Positions 2,127 through 19,914 of a DNA stretch of 64,000 nt are shown one piece after another; the first letter of the stretch is position 1, and each line of letters opens with the position of its first letter. Source of the stretch: Escherichia phage LYE-01; the sequence record PQ303785.1; one strand, 5' to 3'. The position numbers and the translations under genes are program-made. The notes beneath the pieces were generated by a model. It had not been told where the DNA came from and searched no databases. It saw only the letters and a list, made by a program, of their open reading frames with translations.

Positions 2127-3714
<1,588 letters not shown>

Positions 3715-3717
3715 GCT

Positions 3718-3771
3718 GTTTACAAGTCCCTCGTGTTGTGTTACAGTAGTCTTACTGACATAACATGAGGA
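3718..3771 (+). promoter_or_regulatory. Early-promoter-like element (GTTTAC -35, degenerate -10 TACAGT) plus conserved leader ending in GAGGA; copy 1 of a duplicated 54-bp cassette
   Basis: About 50 of 54 nt identical to 19537..19590; sits immediately upstream of alc. Confidence 0.45.
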
Positions 3772-3778
3772 CTTTATG

Positions 3779-4282
3779 ATGGATTTACAGCTTATTACTA
3801 CTGAAATGGTCGTTGAAGCATATGGTGATACTACAGATGGGATTTCTGTATTTAAAGGAAATCGTCGAGTTGGATATATCACCGATCTTAAGAAAGATTT
3901 AGCTAAGCAAGTTAAGCGGAAAACGACCATCAAAGAATATCGAAATCGTCGTCTTGAGCAAGCCCGTGATATGCTTCCTGATGCAGTTGAGGAGATGAAA
4001 GTCTTTTTAGAAAATCAGCTTGCGAAATATGATTGTGAAGTATTCATTAATCAGACTCAACCTAATGTTCATATTAATAACTGTAAATGCTACATCATTG
4101 TTAATCCTTTGACAGAAAAGCATCGTCTTGGAATTAGTAATCCAAATCGTAGCGCATCAGATATGGCAGAAGATGTTGAGGCATGCTTTAAAATTTCTAA
4201 ATCTCCAGCTGAACATCATATTTTAATTAACGGTCTTTCTCAAGACGATATTGTAGAGGTTATTAAAACTTTATGCATGTAA
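3779..4282 (+). CDS. alc: Alc, inhibitor of host transcription, 167 aa
   Basis: Track ORF 3776..4282 begins MM; second ATG gives 167 aa as in T4; position between rnlA and pseT. Confidence 0.75.
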   Translation: MDLQLITTEMVVEAYGDTTDGISVFKGNRRVGYITDLKKDLAKQVKRKTTIKEYRNRRLEQARDMLPDAVEEMKVFLENQLAKYDCEVFINQTQPNVHINNCKCYIIVNPLTEKHRLGISNPNRSASDMAEDVEACFKISKSPAEHHILINGLSQDDIVEVIKTLCM

Positions 4283-5149: not shown

Positions 5150-6370
<1,221 letters not shown>

Positions 6371-6371
<1 letters not shown>

Positions 6372-7039: not shown

Positions 7040-7042
7040 CAG

Positions 7043-7859: not shown

Positions 7860-8194
7860 TGAATTTAACTGATATAATTGATAATTGTCTTGAAAATGAT
7901 ACTGGCGATCATAGAGCGCTTGATTCTGAAACAGCACAGTTCATTAGAATAACTTTAATGAATGATACTCTAGTGAATAGTATTCATCCTTCTGTGTATG
8001 ATGCTATTATTGTGACGAAGTATCCAGTTGAGCTTCACAAAAAGATGGCTGGTGCAATTTTTATTGATAAGAAAAACCGCTTTAAAGATGGGCAGAATAT
8101 AATTAGTTCTGTTATTAAAAGTATAACTAAACTTCGTCACGAAATTTATCGTGTTGAAACTGCTAAATCTGCTTATCTGGTGATTATGAAATGA
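7856..8194 (+). CDS. Hypothetical protein, 112 aa
   Basis: Track ORF. Confidence 0.45.
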   Translation: MMNLTDIIDNCLENDTGDHRALDSETAQFIRITLMNDTLVNSIHPSVYDAIIVTKYPVELHKKMAGAIFIDKKNRFKDGQNIISSVIKSITKLRHEIYRVETAKSAYLVIMK

Positions 8195-8772
8195 AAGCGA
8201 GTACAGTACTTCAAATTGCATATTTAGTATCACAAGAATCAAAATGTTGCTCCTGGAAGGTAGGAGCAGTAATTGAAAAGAATGGACGTATTATTTCTAC
8301 TGGGTATAATGGTTCGCCTGCAGGTGGTGTGAATTGCTGTGATTATGCTGCTGAGCAAGGTTGGTTGCTGAATAAGCCTAAACATACTATCATTCAAGGT
8401 CATAAGCCTGAATGCGTATCATTTGGTTCAACTGATCGTTTTGTCTTAGCGAAAGAACACCGCAGCGCTCATTCTGAATGGTCGTCTAAAAATGAAATTC
8501 ATGCTGAACTAAATGCAATTTTGTTTGCTGCACGAAATGGTTCTTCAATTGAAGGTGCTACTATGTATGTAACACTTTCTCCTTGCCCAGATTGTGCAAA
8601 AGCGATAGCTCAATCTGGAATTAAAAAGCTGGTTTATTGTGAAACATACGATAAAAATAAACCTGGCTGGGATGATATTCTGCGAAATGCGGGTATTGAA
8701 GTGTTTAATGTTCCTAAGAAAAACTTGAATAAGTTAAACTGGGAAAATATCAACGAATTCTGTGGTGAATAA
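8191..8772 (+). CDS. cd: dCMP deaminase, 193 aa
   Basis: Track ORF; zinc-binding deaminase motifs HAE (HAELNAI) and PCxxC (SPCPDCAKAI); length equals T4 Cd. Confidence 0.9.
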   Translation: MKASTVLQIAYLVSQESKCCSWKVGAVIEKNGRIISTGYNGSPAGGVNCCDYAAEQGWLLNKPKHTIIQGHKPECVSFGSTDRFVLAKEHRSAHSEWSSKNEIHAELNAILFAARNGSSIEGATMYVTLSPCPDCAKAIAQSGIKKLVYCETYDKNKPGWDDILRNAGIEVFNVPKKNLNKLNWENINEFCGE

Positions 8773-9373: not shown

Positions 9374-9709
9374 ATGTCTGAAATACAACAGCTACCAATT
9401 CGTGCTGTCGGTGAATATGTTATTTTAGTTTCTGAACCTGCGCAAGCCGGTGATGAAGAAGTTACAGAATCAGGACTTATTATCGGTAAACGTGTTCAAG
9501 GTGAAGTTCCTGAACTGTGTGTAATTCACTCTGTCGGTCCTGATGTTCCTGAAGGTTTTTGTGAAGTTGGTGATTTGACTTCTCTTCCAGTTGGTCAAAT
9601 TCGAAACGTTCCGCATCCTTTTGTAGCTCTGGGTCTTAAGCAGCCAAAAGAAATTAAACAAAAATTCGTTACCTGTCACTATAAAGCTATTCCATGTCTT
9701 TATAAGTGA
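9374..9709 (+). CDS. 31: Co-chaperonin for head assembly (GroES analogue), 111 aa
   Basis: Track ORF; sequence and length match recalled T4 gp31. Confidence 0.85.
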
Positions 9710-10580: not shown

Positions 10581-10610
10581 GTTTACAGTATAGTTCCTTT
10601 GTGATAGTAT
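10581..10610 (+). promoter_or_regulatory. Candidate early promoter (GTTTAC -35, TAGTAT-like -10)
   Basis: Read from sequence, upstream of the 10638 ORF. Confidence 0.35.
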
Positions 10611-10637
10611 TATCTTACACAAACAAAGGAGAATAAA

Positions 10638-10970
10638 ATGAAAACGATTAATCTGAACGCTGCGGTTAAAGCTAAATGTTTCAATGGTGAATATAACGAA
10701 ACTATGTGGTTCTTAATGGCAGTTGAAGGTGATATTATTGAAGTAGAAACAACAGAAGGTATGGGAACAGATTTCACCTTTACAATTCAAGTTCATAATT
10801 TCTTTACTGGTTGGATTTATGAATTGAATACAGTAATCGTTGGAAAAATTGAACAAAATGAATTAGGTGAATGGTATTATGTTACAGCTCGCCAACGTGC
10901 AGAACGCTTAATTGAGAAGATGAAAAAAGTTGGCAAACTTGACATGCAGCACTGGAAAGTAGTAAAATAA
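10638..10970 (+). CDS. Hypothetical protein, 110 aa
   Basis: Track ORF with AAGGAG RBS. Confidence 0.55.
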   Translation: MKTINLNAAVKAKCFNGEYNETMWFLMAVEGDIIEVETTEGMGTDFTFTIQVHNFFTGWIYELNTVIVGKIEQNELGEWYYVTARQRAERLIEKMKKVGKLDMQHWKVVK

Positions 10971-13419: not shown

Positions 13420-13688
13420 TGTTTGTTGTTCATACTATTTATGAAAATGAAGGTAATACTACACGTGATTACGGTCACGTAAATCAATTTTTTAGATGCA
13501 ATCCAGAATTCCGTGCTCAAAAAGACGAACGAATTTTTAAAAAATGTGTAGAACAAGGTTTCATTTACGTCAAGCACTGGATGCAAGGAAATAAAGTTAG
13601 AACTACATATCATAGGTCTTTGCCTGAGCTTAATGATGAATTGATTTATAATAGAGCTGTAAACCAAACCTTGAAGGATGAGCAATGA
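13419..13688 (+). CDS. Hypothetical protein, 89 aa
   Basis: Track ORF; mirror ORF on minus strand judged spurious. Confidence 0.45.
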   Translation: MFVVHTIYENEGNTTRDYGHVNQFFRCNPEFRAQKDERIFKKCVEQGFIYVKHWMQGNKVRTTYHRSLPELNDELIYNRAVNQTLKDEQ

Positions 13689-15145
13689 TTCTTAAAATTC
13701 TGAATGAAATAGCATCTATTGGATCAACTAAGCAGAAGCAAGCAATTCTTGAAAAGAATAAAGATAATGAATTGCTTAAACGAGTATATCGTCTGACTTA
13801 TTCTCGTGGGTTACAGTATTATATCAAGAAATGGCCTAAGCCTGGTATTGCTACCCAGAGTTTTGGAATGCTGACTATTACCGATATGCTTGACTTCATT
13901 GAATTCACGTTAGCTACTCGGAAATTGACTGGAAATGCAGCAATTGAGGAATTAACTGGATATATCACTGATGGTAAAAAGGATGATGTTGAAGTTTTGC
14001 GTCGGGTTATGATGCGAGACCTTGAATGCGGTGCTTCAGTATCTATTGCAAACAAAGTTTGGCCAGGTTTAATTCCTGAACAACCTCAAATGCTGGCAAG
14101 TTCTTATGATGAAAAAGGCATTAGTAAGAATATCAAGTTTCCAGCCTTTGCGCAGTTAAAAGCAGATGGAGCTCGGTGTTTTGCTGAAGTCCGAGGCGAT
14201 GAATTAGATGATGTTCGTCTTTTATCGCGAGCTGGTAATGAATATCTAGGATTAGATCTTCTTAAGGAAGAGTTAATCAAAATGACTGCTGAAGCCCGCC
14301 AGATTCATCCAGAAGGTGTGTTAATTGATGGCGAATTGGTATACCATGAGCAAGTTGAAAAGGAACCAGAAGGCCTAGATTTTCTTTTTGATGCTCCTGA
14401 AATCAGTAAAGCTAAAGAGTTTGCCGAAGTAGCTGAATCTCGTACTGCTTCTAATGGAATCGCTAATAAATCTTTAAAGGGAACTATTTCAGAAAAAGAA
14501 GCCCAATGTATGAAGTTTCAGGTCTGGGATTATGTTCCGTTGGTAGAAATATACGGTCTTCCGGCGTTTCGTTTAAAATATGATGTACGTTTTTCTAAAC
14601 TAGAACAAATGACATCAGGATATGATAAAGTAATTTTAATTGAAAACCAAGTAGTAAATAACCTAGATGAAGCTAAGGTAATTTATAAAAAATATATTGA
14701 CCAAGGTCTTGAAGGTATTATTCTCAAAAATACCGATGGATTGTGGGAAAATGCTCGTTCAAAAAATCTCTATAAATTTAAAGAAGTAATTGATGTTGAT
14801 TTAAAAATTGTAGGAATTTATCCTCACCGTAAAGACCCTACTAAAGCGGGTGGATTTATTCTTGAATCAGAGTGTGGAAAAATTAAAGTAAATGCTGGTT
14901 CAGGCTTAAAAGATAAAGCCGGTGTAAAATCACATGAACTTGACCGTACTCGCATTATGGAAAACCAAAATTATTATATTGGAAAAATTCTAGAGTGCGA
15001 ATGCAATGGTTGGTTAAAATCTGATGGTCGCACTGATTACGTTAAATTATTTCTTCCAATTGCGATTCGTTTACGTGAAGATAAAACTAAAGCTAATACA
15101 TTCGAGGATGTATTTGGTGATTTTCATGAGGTAACTGGTTTATGA
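13685..15145 (+). CDS. 30: ATP-dependent DNA ligase, 486 aa
   Basis: Track ORF; adenylation motif KADG (AQLKADGARC); sequence matches recalled T4 DNA ligase. Confidence 0.9.
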   Translation: MILKILNEIASIGSTKQKQAILEKNKDNELLKRVYRLTYSRGLQYYIKKWPKPGIATQSFGMLTITDMLDFIEFTLATRKLTGNAAIEELTGYITDGKKDDVEVLRRVMMRDLECGASVSIANKVWPGLIPEQPQMLASSYDEKGISKNIKFPAFAQLKADGARCFAEVRGDELDDVRLLSRAGNEYLGLDLLKEELIKMTAEARQIHPEGVLIDGELVYHEQVEKEPEGLDFLFDAPEISKAKEFAEVAESRTASNGIANKSLKGTISEKEAQCMKFQVWDYVPLVEIYGLPAFRLKYDVRFSKLEQMTSGYDKVILIENQVVNNLDEAKVIYKKYIDQGLEGIILKNTDGLWENARSKNLYKFKEVIDVDLKIVGIYPHRKDPTKAGGFILESECGKIKVNAGSGLKDKAGVKSHELDRTRIMENQNYYIGKILECECNGWLKSDGRTDYVKLFLPIAIRLREDKTKANTFEDVFGDFHEVTGL

Positions 15146-15351: not shown

Positions 15352-15359
15352 TATAAATA
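15352..15359 (+). promoter_or_regulatory. T4 late promoter TATAAATA upstream of alt
   Basis: Exact TATAAATA about 25 nt upstream of ATG, followed by GAGAGGA RBS. Confidence 0.55.
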
Positions 15360-15382
15360 GAATAAACACTAGAGAGGATATG

Positions 15383-17476
15383 ATGGAACTCATTACAGAA
15401 TTATTTGACGAAGATACTACTCTTCCGATTACAAACTTAAATCCAAAGAAGAAAATACCACAAATTTTTTCAGTTCATGTTGATGATGCAATTGAACAAC
15501 CAGGCTTTCGTTTATGTACCTATACATCTGGAGGTGATACTAATCGCGATTTAAAAATGGGCGATAAAATGATGCATATTGTTCCTTTTACATTAACTGC
15601 TAAAGGTTCAATTGCTAAATTAAAAGGTCTCGGTCCAAGTCCAATTAATTACATCAATTCAGTTTTTACTGTTGCAATGCAGACGATGCGTCAGTATAAA
15701 ATTGATGCCTGTATGCTTCGTATTCTTAAGTCTAAAACTGCTGGTCAAGCTCGACAAATTCAAGTTATTGCTGATAGACTTATCCGTAGTCGTTCAGGTG
15801 GCAGATACGTCCTTCTTAAGGAACTCTGGGATTACGATAAAAAGTACGCATATATTCTTATACATCGCAAAAATGTATCACTAGAAGACATTCCAGGAGT
15901 TCCGGAAATTAGTACCGAGCTTTTTACTAAAGTCGAATCGAAGGTCGGCGATGTTTATATCAATAAAGATACTGGAGCTCAAGTAACTAAAAATGAAGCA
16001 ATTGCAGCATCTATTGCGCAAGAAAATGATAAACGTTCTGACCAAGCTGTAATCGTTAAAGTTAAAATTTCCCGTAGAGCAATTGCGCAAAGTCAATCAT
16101 TAGAATCTTCTAGATTTGAAAGCGAATTATTCCAGAAGTATGAATCTACCGCAGCCAATTTTAATAAGCCTGCTACTGCTCCTTTAATTCCAGAAGCAGA
16201 AGAAATGAAGCTTGGAATTAATTCATTAGCTTCTAAAACTAAGGCAGCAAAAATCATTGCCGAAGGAACCGCAGATGAACTTCACTATGACTATAAATTC
16301 TTTTCAAAAAGTGAGGTTAATGAAGTTTCTGAAAAAATTAAAGATGTAATTCTTAATGCGATTAAAAATGAACCAACTACTTCAATAAAATGTTTAGAGA
16401 AATACGCAGCAGCTGTTAATCAATTCTTTGAAGAATATAAAGATAATTGGCTTGATAAACATAATAAAACTCGTAAAGGACAGCCAGATGAAGTCTGGGA
16501 AGAAATAACTAAAAATTCCTGGAACGCAGCAAAAACTAAATTCCTCAAACGAATGATTTATAGCTTTTCTGGAATTGGTGCAGGTCCAATGATTGATATT
16601 ACCATTGCCCGTGATGGTTCTAAATACACTCCATCGCAAAAGCGCGGAATTAGAGAGTATTGCGGATCAGGATATACTGACATCAATAATCTTCTTTTAG
16701 GCCGCTACAATCCAGAACGATATGATGTAATGAGTGAAAAAGAAATTGAATCTGCGATAAATAATTTAGATTCAGCTTTTGAAAATGGTGACCGTATACC
16801 AGAAGGCATTACAGTTTATCGTGCTCAAAGTATGACTGCTCCTATATATGAAGCACTAGTTAAAAATAAAGTGTTCTATTTCAGAAATTTTGTATCTACT
16901 TCTTTAACTCCTATCATTTTTGGACGTTTTGGAATTACACATGCTGGTATCGGTCTTTTAGAACCAGAAGCTCGCAATGAATTAACAGTTGATAAAAATG
17001 AAGAAGGAATAACTATTAATCCAAACGAAATAAGAGCGTATAAAGAAAATCCTGAATACGTTAAAGTTCAAATAGGATGGGCTATTGATGGAGCTCATAA
17101 AGTTAATGTTGTATATCCAGGAAGTCTCGGAATAGCAACAGAAGCTGAAGTTATTCTACCACGCGGATTGATGGTCAAAGTTAATAAAATAACTGATGCT
17201 TCTAATAATGATGGAACAACATCTAATAATACAAAACTCATTCAAGCTGAAGTTATGACTACGGAAGAACTCACCGAATCGGTAATTTATGACGGTGACC
17301 GTCTAATGGAAACTGGTGAATTGGTTGCAATGACAGATGATATTGAAATAGAAGACAGAGTTGACTTTGCATCATTTGTTTCATCAAATGTTAAACAGAA
17401 AGCAGAATCATCTCTCGGAATTATTGCGTCTTGCATAGATATTACAAACATGCCTTACAAGTTCGTTCAAGGATAA
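15383..17476 (+). CDS. alt: Alt-type ADP-ribosyltransferase (packaged internal head protein), about 697 aa
   Basis: Track ORF 15380..17476 (MM start); N-terminus MELITELFDE; R-S-E ART motifs (YRAQ, FVSTSL, EAEVILPRG). Confidence 0.8.
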   Translation: MELITELFDEDTTLPITNLNPKKKIPQIFSVHVDDAIEQPGFRLCTYTSGGDTNRDLKMGDKMMHIVPFTLTAKGSIAKLKGLGPSPINYINSVFTVAMQTMRQYKIDACMLRILKSKTAGQARQIQVIADRLIRSRSGGRYVLLKELWDYDKKYAYILIHRKNVSLEDIPGVPEISTELFTKVESKVGDVYINKDTGAQVTKNEAIAASIAQENDKRSDQAVIVKVKISRRAIAQSQSLESSRFESELFQKYESTAANFNKPATAPLIPEAEEMKLGINSLASKTKAAKIIAEGTADELHYDYKFFSKSEVNEVSEKIKDVILNAIKNEPTTSIKCLEKYAAAVNQFFEEYKDNWLDKHNKTRKGQPDEVWEEITKNSWNAAKTKFLKRMIYSFSGIGAGPMIDITIARDGSKYTPSQKRGIREYCGSGYTDINNLLLGRYNPERYDVMSEKEIESAINNLDSAFENGDRIPEGITVYRAQSMTAPIYEALVKNKVFYFRNFVSTSLTPIIFGRFGITHAGIGLLEPEARNELTVDKNEEGITINPNEIRAYKENPEYVKVQIGWAIDGAHKVNVVYPGSLGIATEAEVILPRGLMVKVNKITDASNNDGTTSNNTKLIQAEVMTTEELTESVIYDGDRLMETGELVAMTDDIEIEDRVDFASFVSSNVKQKAESSLGIIASCIDITNMPYKFVQG

Positions 17477-17479
17477 ATC

Positions 17480-19537
17480 ATGGAACTTATTACAGAATTA
17501 TTTGACGGCGCTTCGGCGCCGGTTGTTAACTTAAATCCTAAGCATAAAATACCTCAAATTTTTGCTATTCAAGCAGGCGAAGAAAGCGTGCTTCCTGGAT
17601 TTAGATTTTGTACATACACCTCTGGCGGTGATACAAATAAAAACGTTAAGCCAGGCGATAAAATGATGCATATCGTAATGATAGGTGTCAATGAGAAACT
17701 ATCATTAGTTAAACTTAGAAACTTGGGTGGAAATCCAATTGGTGTCATTAATGCGGTTTTTGATACTGCTCTTCAGACAATGAAACAATACAAAATTGAC
17801 GCATGCTTATTCCGCGTACTAAAGAGTAAAACAAATGGTGCAGCTCGTCAAATGCAAGTTATTGCCGACCGTTTAGTACGTACTAAAGGAGCAGGTCGAT
17901 ATGTTCTTTTAAAGGAAATCTGGGATTACGATAAAAAGTACGCATATATTATGGTTTACCGTAAAAATGCTAATTTAGAAGACATTCCAGGTGTACCTCC
18001 TATTTCAACTGAGTTATTCACAAAAGTTGAATCAAAGGTTGGTGATGTTTATGTAGATGTTAAAACAGGTAATGCTGTTCCTAAAGCTGTTGCTGTTGCT
18101 GCTTCTATTGCTTTAGAAAATGATAAGCGCACGGATCAAGCTGTTATTCAGAAAACTAAAATTAGTCGTCGGTTAGCAGCACAAGCTCAATATTCTACTG
18201 TCGATGCTTCACTTCAGGGTGATAGCTTCGCTGCTAAGAAATATCAAGAGTTTGAATCTAAAGTTCCGGTATATAAAGCAGAAGGACCAATGAACTCTGG
18301 CGTTATTCAGGTTGGTTCAAACTTCAGCAAAGGAGCTATCGGTGGTATGAGAAGTGCTTCCCGTTTTAAATCTAGTGATTATGAATTAGAAAGCTTCCGA
18401 AATCATATTGCATTGGCTCATGCGCGTTTACGTGATCCATCTATCAAGTTACAGAGCGATATATCATATCAAGGTTCTCAAGAATATTTAAAGAATAAAG
18501 AATTTTTTGATTATAAAACTGATAAAATTTTAAGTGATCTTGCTGACATTAATATTTCTAATAGCTTTGATGTTATTAAGAAAATTGTCAATGATTTAGT
18601 TAAAGGTTCTAAAGCCACACCAGATGAAAAGGTAGCTATTGTTCAATTTGTCATGAATGGCGTTTATAAATTGATTAATGAGTCTGCTTCTCAAGCGTAT
18701 GAATATGCAAGTACTGAAGTAACTCCAAAAGGATTAACTCAGGCTGAGTCTGATGTAATTGAAGATTATTGTGCAGATTCATATGTTGAAATGAACTCGT
18801 TCCTTTTAGGTAAACCGGATTCTACTCGTGAAGAATACATGGAACGAGCTATTAAACACATCGAGACAATGGATTCTGCCTTTGCCAAAGGATCAGTTCT
18901 TCCTCCAGGAACTACACTTTACCGTGGACAAGAAGTTACCTTTAAAACTTTACGTCATAATATTGAAAATAAAATGTTCTACTTCAAGAACTTCGTATCC
19001 ACATCGCTTAAACCAAATATCTTCGGTGAGTATGGTAAAAACTATATGGCTCTAGATGATTCCGGCGCAGTATTTTCTGGTGAAGGAGAAGGTTCAGTTG
19101 ACGCAGAAGATTTGATGCATATGGGCAGTCACTCTGCTTATGCGAATGAAGATGCTGAAACTAGCGTGGGTATGGTAATTAAAGGAGCTGAGCGAATCAA
19201 AGTTATCGTTCCAGGACATTTATCAGGATTTCCATCAGAAGCTGAAGTTATTTTACCGCGTGGAATTTTGCTGAAGATTAATAAAGTGAGTACGTACATG
19301 ATGAAAGAAACTGCTTATAATAAGTATCTAATCGAAGGCACAATCGTTCCTCCTTCTGAACAATTAGAAGAATCGGTATATGATGGCGACCATCTAATGG
19401 AAACTGGTGAAGTTCGTCCAATGGCTGGATTTAATCAATTCCTTGTAGAAGAATCAAAAGAAGAGGAAAACGAAGTTTCTCAAATCTTGGCTTCTTTGGT
19501 TAACATCAACGGAATGTCTAAAAAGTTCAAGATGTAG
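17480..19537 (+). CDS. Second Alt-like ADP-ribosyltransferase paralog, 685 aa
   Basis: Track ORF; same N-terminal MELITELFD leader and conserved blocks (CTYTSGGDTN, KYAYI, GVP, ISTELFTKVESKVGDVY); ART motifs retained (YRGQ, FVSTSL, EAEVILPRG); central region diverged. Confidence 0.75.
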   Translation: MELITELFDGASAPVVNLNPKHKIPQIFAIQAGEESVLPGFRFCTYTSGGDTNKNVKPGDKMMHIVMIGVNEKLSLVKLRNLGGNPIGVINAVFDTALQTMKQYKIDACLFRVLKSKTNGAARQMQVIADRLVRTKGAGRYVLLKEIWDYDKKYAYIMVYRKNANLEDIPGVPPISTELFTKVESKVGDVYVDVKTGNAVPKAVAVAASIALENDKRTDQAVIQKTKISRRLAAQAQYSTVDASLQGDSFAAKKYQEFESKVPVYKAEGPMNSGVIQVGSNFSKGAIGGMRSASRFKSSDYELESFRNHIALAHARLRDPSIKLQSDISYQGSQEYLKNKEFFDYKTDKILSDLADINISNSFDVIKKIVNDLVKGSKATPDEKVAIVQFVMNGVYKLINESASQAYEYASTEVTPKGLTQAESDVIEDYCADSYVEMNSFLLGKPDSTREEYMERAIKHIETMDSAFAKGSVLPPGTTLYRGQEVTFKTLRHNIENKMFYFKNFVSTSLKPNIFGEYGKNYMALDDSGAVFSGEGEGSVDAEDLMHMGSHSAYANEDAETSVGMVIKGAERIKVIVPGHLSGFPSEAEVILPRGILLKINKVSTYMMKETAYNKYLIEGTIVPPSEQLEESVYDGDHLMETGEVRPMAGFNQFLVEESKEEENEVSQILASLVNINGMSKKFKM

Positions 19538-19590
19538 TTTACAAGTCACTCGTGTTGTGTTATAATAATCTTACTGACATAACATGAGGA
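19537..19590 (+). promoter_or_regulatory. Early promoter (GTTTAC -35, 18-nt spacer, TGTTATAAT extended -10) plus conserved leader; copy 2 of duplicated cassette
   Basis: About 93 percent identical to 3718..3771; here the -10 is consensus TATAAT. Confidence 0.5.
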
Positions 19591-19597
19591 ACACAAA

Positions 19598-19888
19598 ATG
19601 AAATCTTCTTTGCGCTTTTTAGGTCAAGAACTCGTAGTTGAAGGCGTTATTCCTGCTGATAACGCTTTTAATGAAGCGGTTTACGACGAATTTATCAAAA
19701 TTTTTGGAACAGATAAAAAGTTCGGAATTTTTCCTTCTGAAAATTTTTCAAAGCCAGAACAGACTGAAAGCATTTTCCAAGGTGTAGTAACAGGTAAATT
19801 TGAGTCAGAAGCTCCGGTAAAAATTGAAGTTTATATTGAAGACAGTTTAGTTGCTTCAGTTGCTGCTTTTATTTCATTCCGTAAATAA
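19598..19888 (+). CDS. Hypothetical protein, 96 aa
   Basis: Track ORF; GAGGA RBS 7 nt upstream. Confidence 0.55.
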   Translation: MKSSLRFLGQELVVEGVIPADNAFNEAVYDEFIKIFGTDKKFGIFPSENFSKPEQTESIFQGVVTGKFESEAPVKIEVYIEDSLVASVAAFISFRK

Positions 19889-19892
19889 AAAT

Positions 19893-19914
19893 ATGGGGAC
19901 CTTTCGGTCCCCAT
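19893..19914. terminator. Bidirectional terminator hairpin ATGGGGACC-TTTC-GGTCCCCAT between convergent genes
   Basis: 9-bp stem read from sequence between plus-strand ORF end and gene 54 end. Confidence 0.6.

Follow-up and report, generated by a model that had tools for sequence, protein, structure and literature searches.

Three described systems bear on the element studied here, a 54-base-pair (bp) cassette that stands twice in a 64,000-nucleotide (nt) stretch of Escherichia phage LYE-01 (PQ303785.1; the whole stretch is called the window), once ahead of alc, which encodes a host transcription inhibitor, and once ahead of alt.-3. T4 early promoters (Pe) have the architecture 'UP/-35/TGn/-10' (PMC2988021). 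PeSL cassettes join an early promoter to a stem-loop; the two PeSL papers take them for sites of recombination and assign to their stem-loop the role of terminating or attenuating transcription (Arbiol et al. 2010, PMC2839356; Comeau et al. 2014, PMC4122927). In the T4 genes e, soc, 49 and I-TevI, the Shine-Dalgarno sequence is held in a helix in upstream transcripts and a promoter lies inside the hairpin; this internal promoter is late (TATAAATA), and the early and middle transcripts are silenced (PMC3014915). Neither alc nor alt.-3 is among the hairpin-masked cases in that review, and a literature text query with the cassette sequence found no paper. Here we report that the two cassettes are near-identical, that each matches an early promoter and that each is predicted to fold into one long RNA hairpin. 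With a probability of roughly 0.6, we read them as paralogs of an early-promoter hairpin cassette that would mask the Shine-Dalgarno sequence in read-through RNA, the alc copy having been transplanted to alt.-3.

Copy 1 (GTTTACAAGTCCCTCGTGTTGTGTTACAGTAGTCTTACTGACATAACATGAGGA; 3718-3771, + strand) precedes alc, and copy 2 (GTTTACAAGTCACTCGTGTTGTGTTATAATAATCTTACTGACATAACATGAGGA; 19537-19590, + strand) precedes alt.-3. An original prediction, made by reading the window, had described a duplicated promoter-leader cassette of about 93% identity. Indeed, sequence reading and a repeat finder, which returned a two-copy family, gave 50 identical positions of 54 (92.6%), the differences being at offsets 12 (C/A), 27 (C/T), 29 (G/A) and 32 (G/A). 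Both copies start with GTTTAC and contain the leader CTTACTGACATAACATGAGGA, as predicted. One and the same GAGGA serves as Shine-Dalgarno sequence for two unrelated genes, at 3767-3771 (+ strand) for alc (Alc, PF17527) and at 19586-19590 (+ strand) for alt.-3 (DUF5498), each time 7 nt before the ATG (3779 and 19598, respectively), and this point of the prediction also held. The start of alc, which had been placed at 3776, was moved to the ATG at 3779; this fits the annotated start in T4 (the second ATG) and the 7-nt spacing of the alt.-3 copy.

At the 5' end the repeat stops at the G of GTTTAC; the 3' ends of rnlA and the second alt gene, which lie beyond, are unrelated to each other, and the TAG of the alt gene ends on that very G (19537). 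At the 3' end it stops at GAGGA, and a gene-specific 7-nt spacer and the ATG follow. No match with three or fewer mismatches arose in 100 shuffles. Among the 528 pairs of GTTTAC...TAnnnT candidates in the window, the alc/alt.-3 pair scored 44 and the next genuine promoter pair 19, against a background with a mean of -2.3 and a standard deviation of 5.2. T-even early-promoter cassettes are 65-75% identical among themselves over about 56 nt, so exact alignment places the two copies above this background, and the pair score shows that their likeness far exceeds the family resemblance of T-even early promoters. We conclude that the repeat is real, conserved and non-random.

Both copies are predicted to be strong, near-consensus T4-type early promoters. 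The core promoter of copy 1 (3719-3747, + strand) comprises the -35 element TTTACA (3719-3724), a 17-nt spacer, TGn and the -10 element TACAGT (3742-3747); that of copy 2 (19538-19566, + strand) comprises TTTACA (19538-19543), a 17-nt spacer, TGn and TATAAT (19561-19566). A sigma-70 consensus scan scored them as 9/12 and 11/12 matches, with TG before the -10 element in both, in agreement with the predicted promoter function. Like the T4 early promoters (PMC2988021), both have the GTTTAC -35 region, the TGn-extended -10 element, TAxxxT, an A-rich stretch approximately 40 to 55 nt upstream and early downstream genes. At the promoter level we found no difference; what is added here is the near-identity of two copies and the built-in hairpin. 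In a Mosigvirus record, the two homologous sites carry annotations as T4-type early promoters. With the usual distance of 6 to 8 nt after the -10 element, transcription would start near A3754 and A19573, and each cassette has a leader of about 25 nt. In T4, alc and alt.-3 give early RNA and early protein, whereas alt.-1/alt.-2, just upstream of alt.-3, give middle RNA, and RnlA is a late protein (PMC9697503 supplements). The early timing of the two genes, set against their middle or late upstream neighbors, fits an early promoter of its own for each gene.

A point absent from the original prediction is the secondary structure: according to the folding model, the whole cassette is one long sense-strand hairpin. 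Its 5' arm corresponds to the promoter spacer (offsets ~7-25) and its 3' arm to the leader including the Shine-Dalgarno sequence (offsets ~39-57). In copy 1, the hairpin (3724-3774, + strand) has a folding energy of -25.7 kcal/mol (z ~ -5.8; antisense, -17.9 kcal/mol). Within the promoter spacer is the 5' arm, AAGTCC(C)TCGTGTTGTGT; the 3' arm ACATAACATGAGGACTT holds the Shine-Dalgarno sequence, and the -10 element and the inner stem CAGTA/TACTG form the top. In copy 2 (19545-19592, + strand; -19.6 kcal/mol, z ~ -5.1; antisense, -10.0 kcal/mol), the inner 12 pairs are those of copy 1, the outer pairs are contributed by the downstream bases of alt.-3 itself, and C12A and G29A weaken the structure. 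Overall, cassette folds ranged from -19.6 to -26.9 kcal/mol per approximately 50 nt, with z ~ -5. The antisense fold was weaker by 5-10 kcal/mol because three of the pairs are G.U, which points to sense RNA and not to DNA. Rfam covariance models gave no match at copy 1 and two chance-level matches at copy 2 (17 bits versus thresholds of 100-200).

The arrangement suggests what the hairpin would do in different transcripts. In the folding model, the GAG of the Shine-Dalgarno sequence had an unpaired probability of 0.00 in read-through RNAs. The leader alone was unstructured (-2.5 and -2.2 kcal/mol; z -0.2 and +0.7). With its putative start past the 5' arm, a transcript of the internal promoter would have the 3' arm only. 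We propose that the host RNA polymerase would start at the internal promoter right after infection, producing an mRNA that begins near the hairpin top and whose ribosome-binding site would be free of a strong hairpin. Longer RNAs, reading from rnlA into alc or from the late alt genes into alt.-3, would carry both arms and bury GAGGA. Translation of alc and alt.-3 from these RNAs would be blocked, or would depend on a ribosome that ends the upstream gene 0-3 nt before the -35 element. The logic would be that of gene e and of soc, 49 and I-TevI, except that the promoter is early and not late.

The comparison with that type of switch is close in design and opposite in timing. As in gene e, the Shine-Dalgarno sequence lies in a stable helix whose 5' arm would be upstream of the internal start; in contrast, an early promoter of the sigma-70 type takes the internal place, and it is middle or late transcripts that would be silenced. 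In line with this, the late-promoter motif TATAAATA was found inside neither cassette. The sequences of both copies also contained neither a RegB GGAG in the leader nor an A/U-rich RegA-like site at the AUG.

RNA arriving from upstream is plausible at both cassettes. Early genes are on the + strand of the window. The late-promoter motif TATAAATA occurs at 15352-15359 (+ strand), ahead of the two alt genes, and is a likely source of late read-through into copy 2. Ahead of rnlA there is a site (+ strand) that would belong to the middle class by its sequence alone, with a MotA-box-like TGCTT (2538-2542) 15 nt ahead of TACTAT (2558-2563).

The element fits the published PeSL class. In the PeSL papers, the order of parts is the same, with an A/T-rich stretch first; the PST/T4 consensus TTTACW-N17-TAYWAT fits both copies; and a Shine-Dalgarno sequence and a start codon stand at the 3' end. 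The stem-loops described there lie between -35 and -10 or over the -10 element and contain G-T pairs; both copies are built likewise, with three G.U pairs. PeSL elements are repeated in a genome and proposed to recombine with each other, and the alc/alt.-3 cassette is repeated, too. However, the two copies are 93-100% identical, whereas other early cassettes are roughly 65-75% identical, and they flank essential genes 13-16 kilobases (kb) apart, not small ORFans. Furthermore, the Shine-Dalgarno sequence is inside the 3' arm, without a U-tract, which gives the element the look of a translational mask rather than that of a terminator. With respect to the hyperplastic regions of the PeSL model, the second alt paralog adjoining copy 2 is full length here and is reduced to alt.-1/alt.-2 in T4.

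The cassette pair was present in essentially every T4-group phage. The 2 kb around copy 1 were 98-99% identical to approximately 500 Tequatrovirus (T4-group) genomes, Yersinia phage fPS-90 being the closest, and the window is thus a Tequatrovirus sequence. A search for further copies with the 54-mer as a query found 997 places in 499 phage records, two per genome and at fixed positions. The spacing between the copies was 13-16 kb across genomes and is about 15.8 kb in the window. In T4, the alc copy is GTTTACAAGTCCCTCGTGTTGTGTTATAGTAGTCTTACTGACATAACATGAGGA, with a single base different in the alt.-3 copy. Among 28 copies from GenBank, IMG/VR and metagenome contigs, GTTTACAAGTCCCTCGTGTTGTGTTATAGTAGTCTTACTGACATAACATGAGGA was the prevailing sequence at both paralogs; there were also genomes whose two copies matched at 54/54 positions. 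The metagenome and IMG/VR scans for variants covered 10 and 8 stretches only and added few new alleles.

Against this consensus, copy 1 of the window has one change, T27C, which turns the usual -10 element of both copies, TATAGT, into TACAGT. Copy 2 has three (C12A, G29A and G32A), of which G29A results in TATAAT; its allele matched eight phage records at 100%. The original prediction had called the -10 element of copy 1 degraded and the copies drifting apart. The reading TACAGT was correct, but it is a single lineage change from TATAGT that keeps the key promoter bases (A-11, T-7, TGn and the -35 element) and converts a U.G pair of the hairpin to C-G. G16A, T27C and C15T each occurred in both paralogs of different genomes. 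Whether these reflect conversion, recurrent mutation or mosaicism within Tequatrovirus is more than such small numbers can tell, and we make no claim of ongoing gene conversion in this genus.

We then turned to the corresponding intergenic regions of other Tevenvirinae genera. The distance between rnlA and alc (58-64 bp) and the hairpin design recurred before alc with differing sequences, and the design was kept, with compensatory changes, in 8 of 10 genera. The 5' and 3' arms were TCTCCTCAT and ATGAGGAGA in Dhakavirus, TCTCCGTTT and AAACGGAGA in Gelderlandvirus, TCTCCATTTGGTT and AACCAAATGGAGA in Karamvirus, TCCTCAT and ATGAGGA in Klebsiella phage Roth79, CCTCGTTTGTT and AACAAACGAGG in Klebsiella phage Clarke_MM3, TCCTCATTT and AAATGAGGA in Winklervirus, and TCCCATTTTGTT and AACAAAATGGGGA in Kanagawavirus. 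In the cross-genus alignment of the alc arms, which included the two non-conforming genera, five of nine base pairs showed double compensatory changes. The covariation score was 0.291, compared to 0.152 +/- 0.035 in shuffles, none of which (0/500) reached it, and to 0.03-0.13 in controls in which the pairing partners were slid.

It seems possible, and we put it forward tentatively, that alc has in its cassette an 'early-only' translational switch, conserved and not described before, which mirrors gene e, occurs in at least eight Tevenvirinae genera and was transplanted to alt.-3 as a 54-bp unit. Equally provisional is what this would mean for the protein: Alc would be made only from the first, promoter-proximal transcripts or when coupled to the translation of rnlA, middle or late read-through RNA yielding none, and Mosigvirus may show the reverse replacement. 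Such a switch would be a plausible, still conjectural, extension of a known kind of cassette. In Mosigvirus SA35RD, the best match of the alc cassette in an 18-kb region was the phage's own alt.-3 cassette (77%; - strand, 14650-14710 and 310-372). That the Mosigvirus alc cassette was overwritten by its own alt.-3 cassette is kept as no more than a possibility, the 77% being barely above the 75% and 72% of other pairs.

The alc and alt.-3 promoters are both of old standing and occupy fixed positions; near-identity of the two is confined to Tequatrovirus. An alt.-3 promoter was found at the same spot in 7/7 outgroup genomes, with the alt stop codon abutting GTTTAC. A masking hairpin before alt.-3 was found in 0/7 of them, and there was a small spacer hairpin only (z -1.6 to +0.7). 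The shared sequence carries an alc-type hairpin and the outgroup alt.-3 promoters have none, which argues for copying in the direction from alc to alt.-3. Probably, the alc cassette, from the -35 element to the Shine-Dalgarno sequence, replaced a pre-existing alt.-3 promoter in an ancestor of Tequatrovirus. The hairpin design would be ancestral for alc, and the shared GTTTACA and CATGAGGA ends could have served as homology for a one-way copying, presumably by gene conversion. Some alt.-3 copies have since acquired C11T, which pairs with a downstream A of alt.-3 itself, or the double change C15T plus G50A. Both are consistent with selection acting on the stem at its new site, in numbers that are too small within the genus for significance. 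Judging from these comparisons, the pair appears best explained as an ancient copy of the alc cassette at alt.-3 rather than as the product of ongoing rearrangement.

Several observations weigh against reading the pair as a transplanted masking cassette. For the cross-genus comparison, the arms were aligned by hand, with the -35 element and the Shine-Dalgarno sequence as anchors and two bulged bases removed, and such an alignment leans towards the structure. MAFFT plus RNAalifold, applied to the ten raw cross-genus alc cassettes, yielded no shared structure, the arms having been shifted out of alignment by indels. The Mosigvirus alc cassette is without a hairpin, and that of Gaprivervirus has a shifted version of it together with a GGGG...CCCC stem-loop. 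Within Tequatrovirus, 101 of 500 shuffles reached the observed covariation score, which was obtained with 13 distinct variants, and the natural variants C12A, G29A and G40T weaken pairs of the hairpin. In alt.-3 mRNA from its own promoter, the Shine-Dalgarno sequence still pairs weakly (-2.2 kcal/mol) with codons 3-5; as the pairing probabilities of this mRNA were ambiguous, stability was used instead to gauge access to the Shine-Dalgarno sequence. In the literature searched, which did not include the promoter tables of the T4 genome review, no mapped 5' ends were found for either site. Finally, plain sequence similarity does not point to a donor: the Tequatrovirus cassette matched outgroup alc and alt.-3 cassettes with nearly the same scores (19 versus 16, 10 versus 11 and 12 versus 14), and the direction of copying rests on the hairpin feature.

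In Gaprivervirus VR20, an additional open reading frame of 78 amino acids, a truncated alc-like one, was found between rnlA and alc (5449-5770). The GGGG...CCCC stem-loop of this phage has the -35 element in its loop and is of the classic PeSL type.

The stem-loop could instead be a transcription attenuator, a terminator or a 3'-end stabilizer of the rnlA or alt unit, with the Shine-Dalgarno sequence in its 3' arm only by accident. We consider this unlikely, although it has published support: one PeSL stem-loop lowers the expression of a downstream lacZ about as rrnB T1 does (PMC2839356), and the placement of the stem-loop and its G-T pairs are those described for PeSL. In the window, moreover, the early cassettes at 7042 and 10973 have hairpins that span the -10 element and leave the Shine-Dalgarno sequence untouched, and UUUAU follows the alc copy. 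However, a terminator scan flagged no terminator-like site on the + strand at either copy, and a U-tract is missing after the alt.-3 copy and after most of the orthologous alc hairpins. Features of an intrinsic terminator were thus found at neither cassette; they were found instead at 19893-19914, where a perfect 9-bp, G+C-rich hairpin (ATGGGGACCTTTCGGTCCCCAT) resembles a two-way terminator on both strands. It separates the convergent alt.-3 and gene 54, alt.-3 being the last gene before it. Furthermore, the 3' arm ends at the Shine-Dalgarno sequence in eight genera and the anti-Shine-Dalgarno sequence co-varies with it (TCTCC/GGAGA, TCCTC/GAGGA, TCCC/GGGG), which would be needless for a plain terminator.

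The original prediction had emphasized homologous recombination between the copies, which would delete or duplicate the block between them and seed modular gene exchange. As the main role of the pair, this is distinctly improbable. In its favor, PeSL recombination and mini-circles are documented in RB49 and phi1, homology of under 50 bp suffices for recombination in T4 (PMC2839356), and a past copying of one cassette onto the other is supported by the comparison above. The block had been named as rnlA-to-alt; it actually extends from alc to the second alt paralog, and rnlA (RNA ligase 1; 2590-3714, + strand, stop codon at 3712-3714) lies upstream of copy 1. Gene identities near both sites were checked against Pfam. 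The block starts with alc (3779-4282, + strand; 167 amino acids; PF17527, E 6e-92) and contains the genes for polynucleotide kinase (PNK; 5463-6371), dCMP deaminase (8191-8772), gp31 (Cpn10; 9374-9709) and DNA ligase (gp30; 13685-15145), followed by the tandem Alt ADP-ribosyltransferase paralogs (15380-17476 and 17480-19537, + strand). Beyond copy 2 is alt.-3 (19598-19888, + strand; 96 amino acids; DUF5498).

By established T4 genetics, loss of a block with ligase and gp31 should be lethal, so reciprocal recombination is unlikely to yield viable phage. The terminal redundancy of T4 is roughly 3%; a 15.8-kb duplication is larger and would be too large for headful packaging. Both copies were at unchanged positions in the 499 records, and a rearranged arrangement was found in none of them. 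Ongoing deletion or duplication of the block was therefore not upheld. The idea of modular exchange stands in part: the past one-way copy of the alc cassette onto alt.-3 is supported, but neither a mini-circle nor a viable rearrangement was seen.

One record has the form that a deletion would take. PP500713.1, an entry of 152,184 bp for Escherichia phage EC.W15-4 that is labelled complete, has the cassette and alt.-3 at its start (1-400) and rnlA and an identical cassette at its end (151900-152184). The ~15.8-kb alc-to-alt block is missing and the ends of the record form the deletion junction. An assembly break or a false circularization at the exact repeat is the probable cause, since the record stops precisely at the repeat on either side, as it would after an assembly break at a 54-bp identical repeat, and since the block that it lacks is essential. 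Such a repeat, 13-16 kb apart, can break or falsely circularize short-read assemblies in general.

Very improbable is a role of the inverted repeat as DNA, either as a cruciform or as the target of a protein that regulates alc and alt.-3 jointly. With an operator in common, the retention of one sequence at two genes would be accounted for, and a DNA-binding protein that acts on stem-loops was a speculation of the PeSL papers (PMC2839356). Nevertheless, at three positions of the stem the pair is G.U in the sense strand alone, where DNA would have a G-T or C-A mismatch, the antisense strand folds far less stably, and across genera the arm sequences vary freely while the pairing is kept, which is the signature of a structure and not of a sequence-specific site. 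Two independently evolved strong promoters, alike through the T4 early-promoter consensus that gives T-even cassettes GTTTAC, TGTG.TA..AT and ATGAGGA in common, have a negligible chance of being the explanation and are already contradicted, since the 93-100% identity reaches into the non-consensus spacer and leader, the pair score stands far above that of the next promoter pair (44 versus 19), and the orthologous sites in seven outgroup genomes lack such likeness.

If the cassettes are indeed transplanted Shine-Dalgarno masks, T4-type phages would use a promoter inside a hairpin in both temporal directions. Late genes (gene e, soc and 49) would be kept silent early, and immediate-early genes such as alc would be kept silent later. 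This would offer a simple account of how early proteins are shut off despite continued transcription from upstream. The pair would also be a clean example of a promoter, a leader and a ribosome-binding site copied together from gene to gene within a phage genome, a step that the PeSL model needs.

Several minor features were noted at and between the cassettes. The ATG within CATGAGGA opens a frame of four or five codons (MRTL*, 3765-3779; MRNTK*, 19584-19601), the TGA of which overlaps the main ATG (ATGA) in both copies and also in Serratia phage X20. We do not consider this mini-frame a functional feature; it is absent in several other genera and probably incidental. A third early-promoter cassette (GTTTACAGTATAGTTCCTTTGTGATAGTAT...CAAAGGAGAATAAAATG; 10581-10640) precedes an open reading frame of 110 amino acids at 10638. 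Its Shine-Dalgarno sequence, AAGGAG, pairs with the promoter spacer TTCCTTTG, and the design may thus be more general. In T4, alt.-3 is dispensable, and mutants with a C-terminal extension escape the CmdTAC defence by blocking the degradation of CmdA (PMC11618068). The tandem Alt paralogs of the window have 41% protein identity, with DNA patches at 72-94%. In T4, the second alt gene is present only as the remnants alt.-1/alt.-2, with the same last ~20 nt before the cassette; Dhakavirus has two full alt copies as well.

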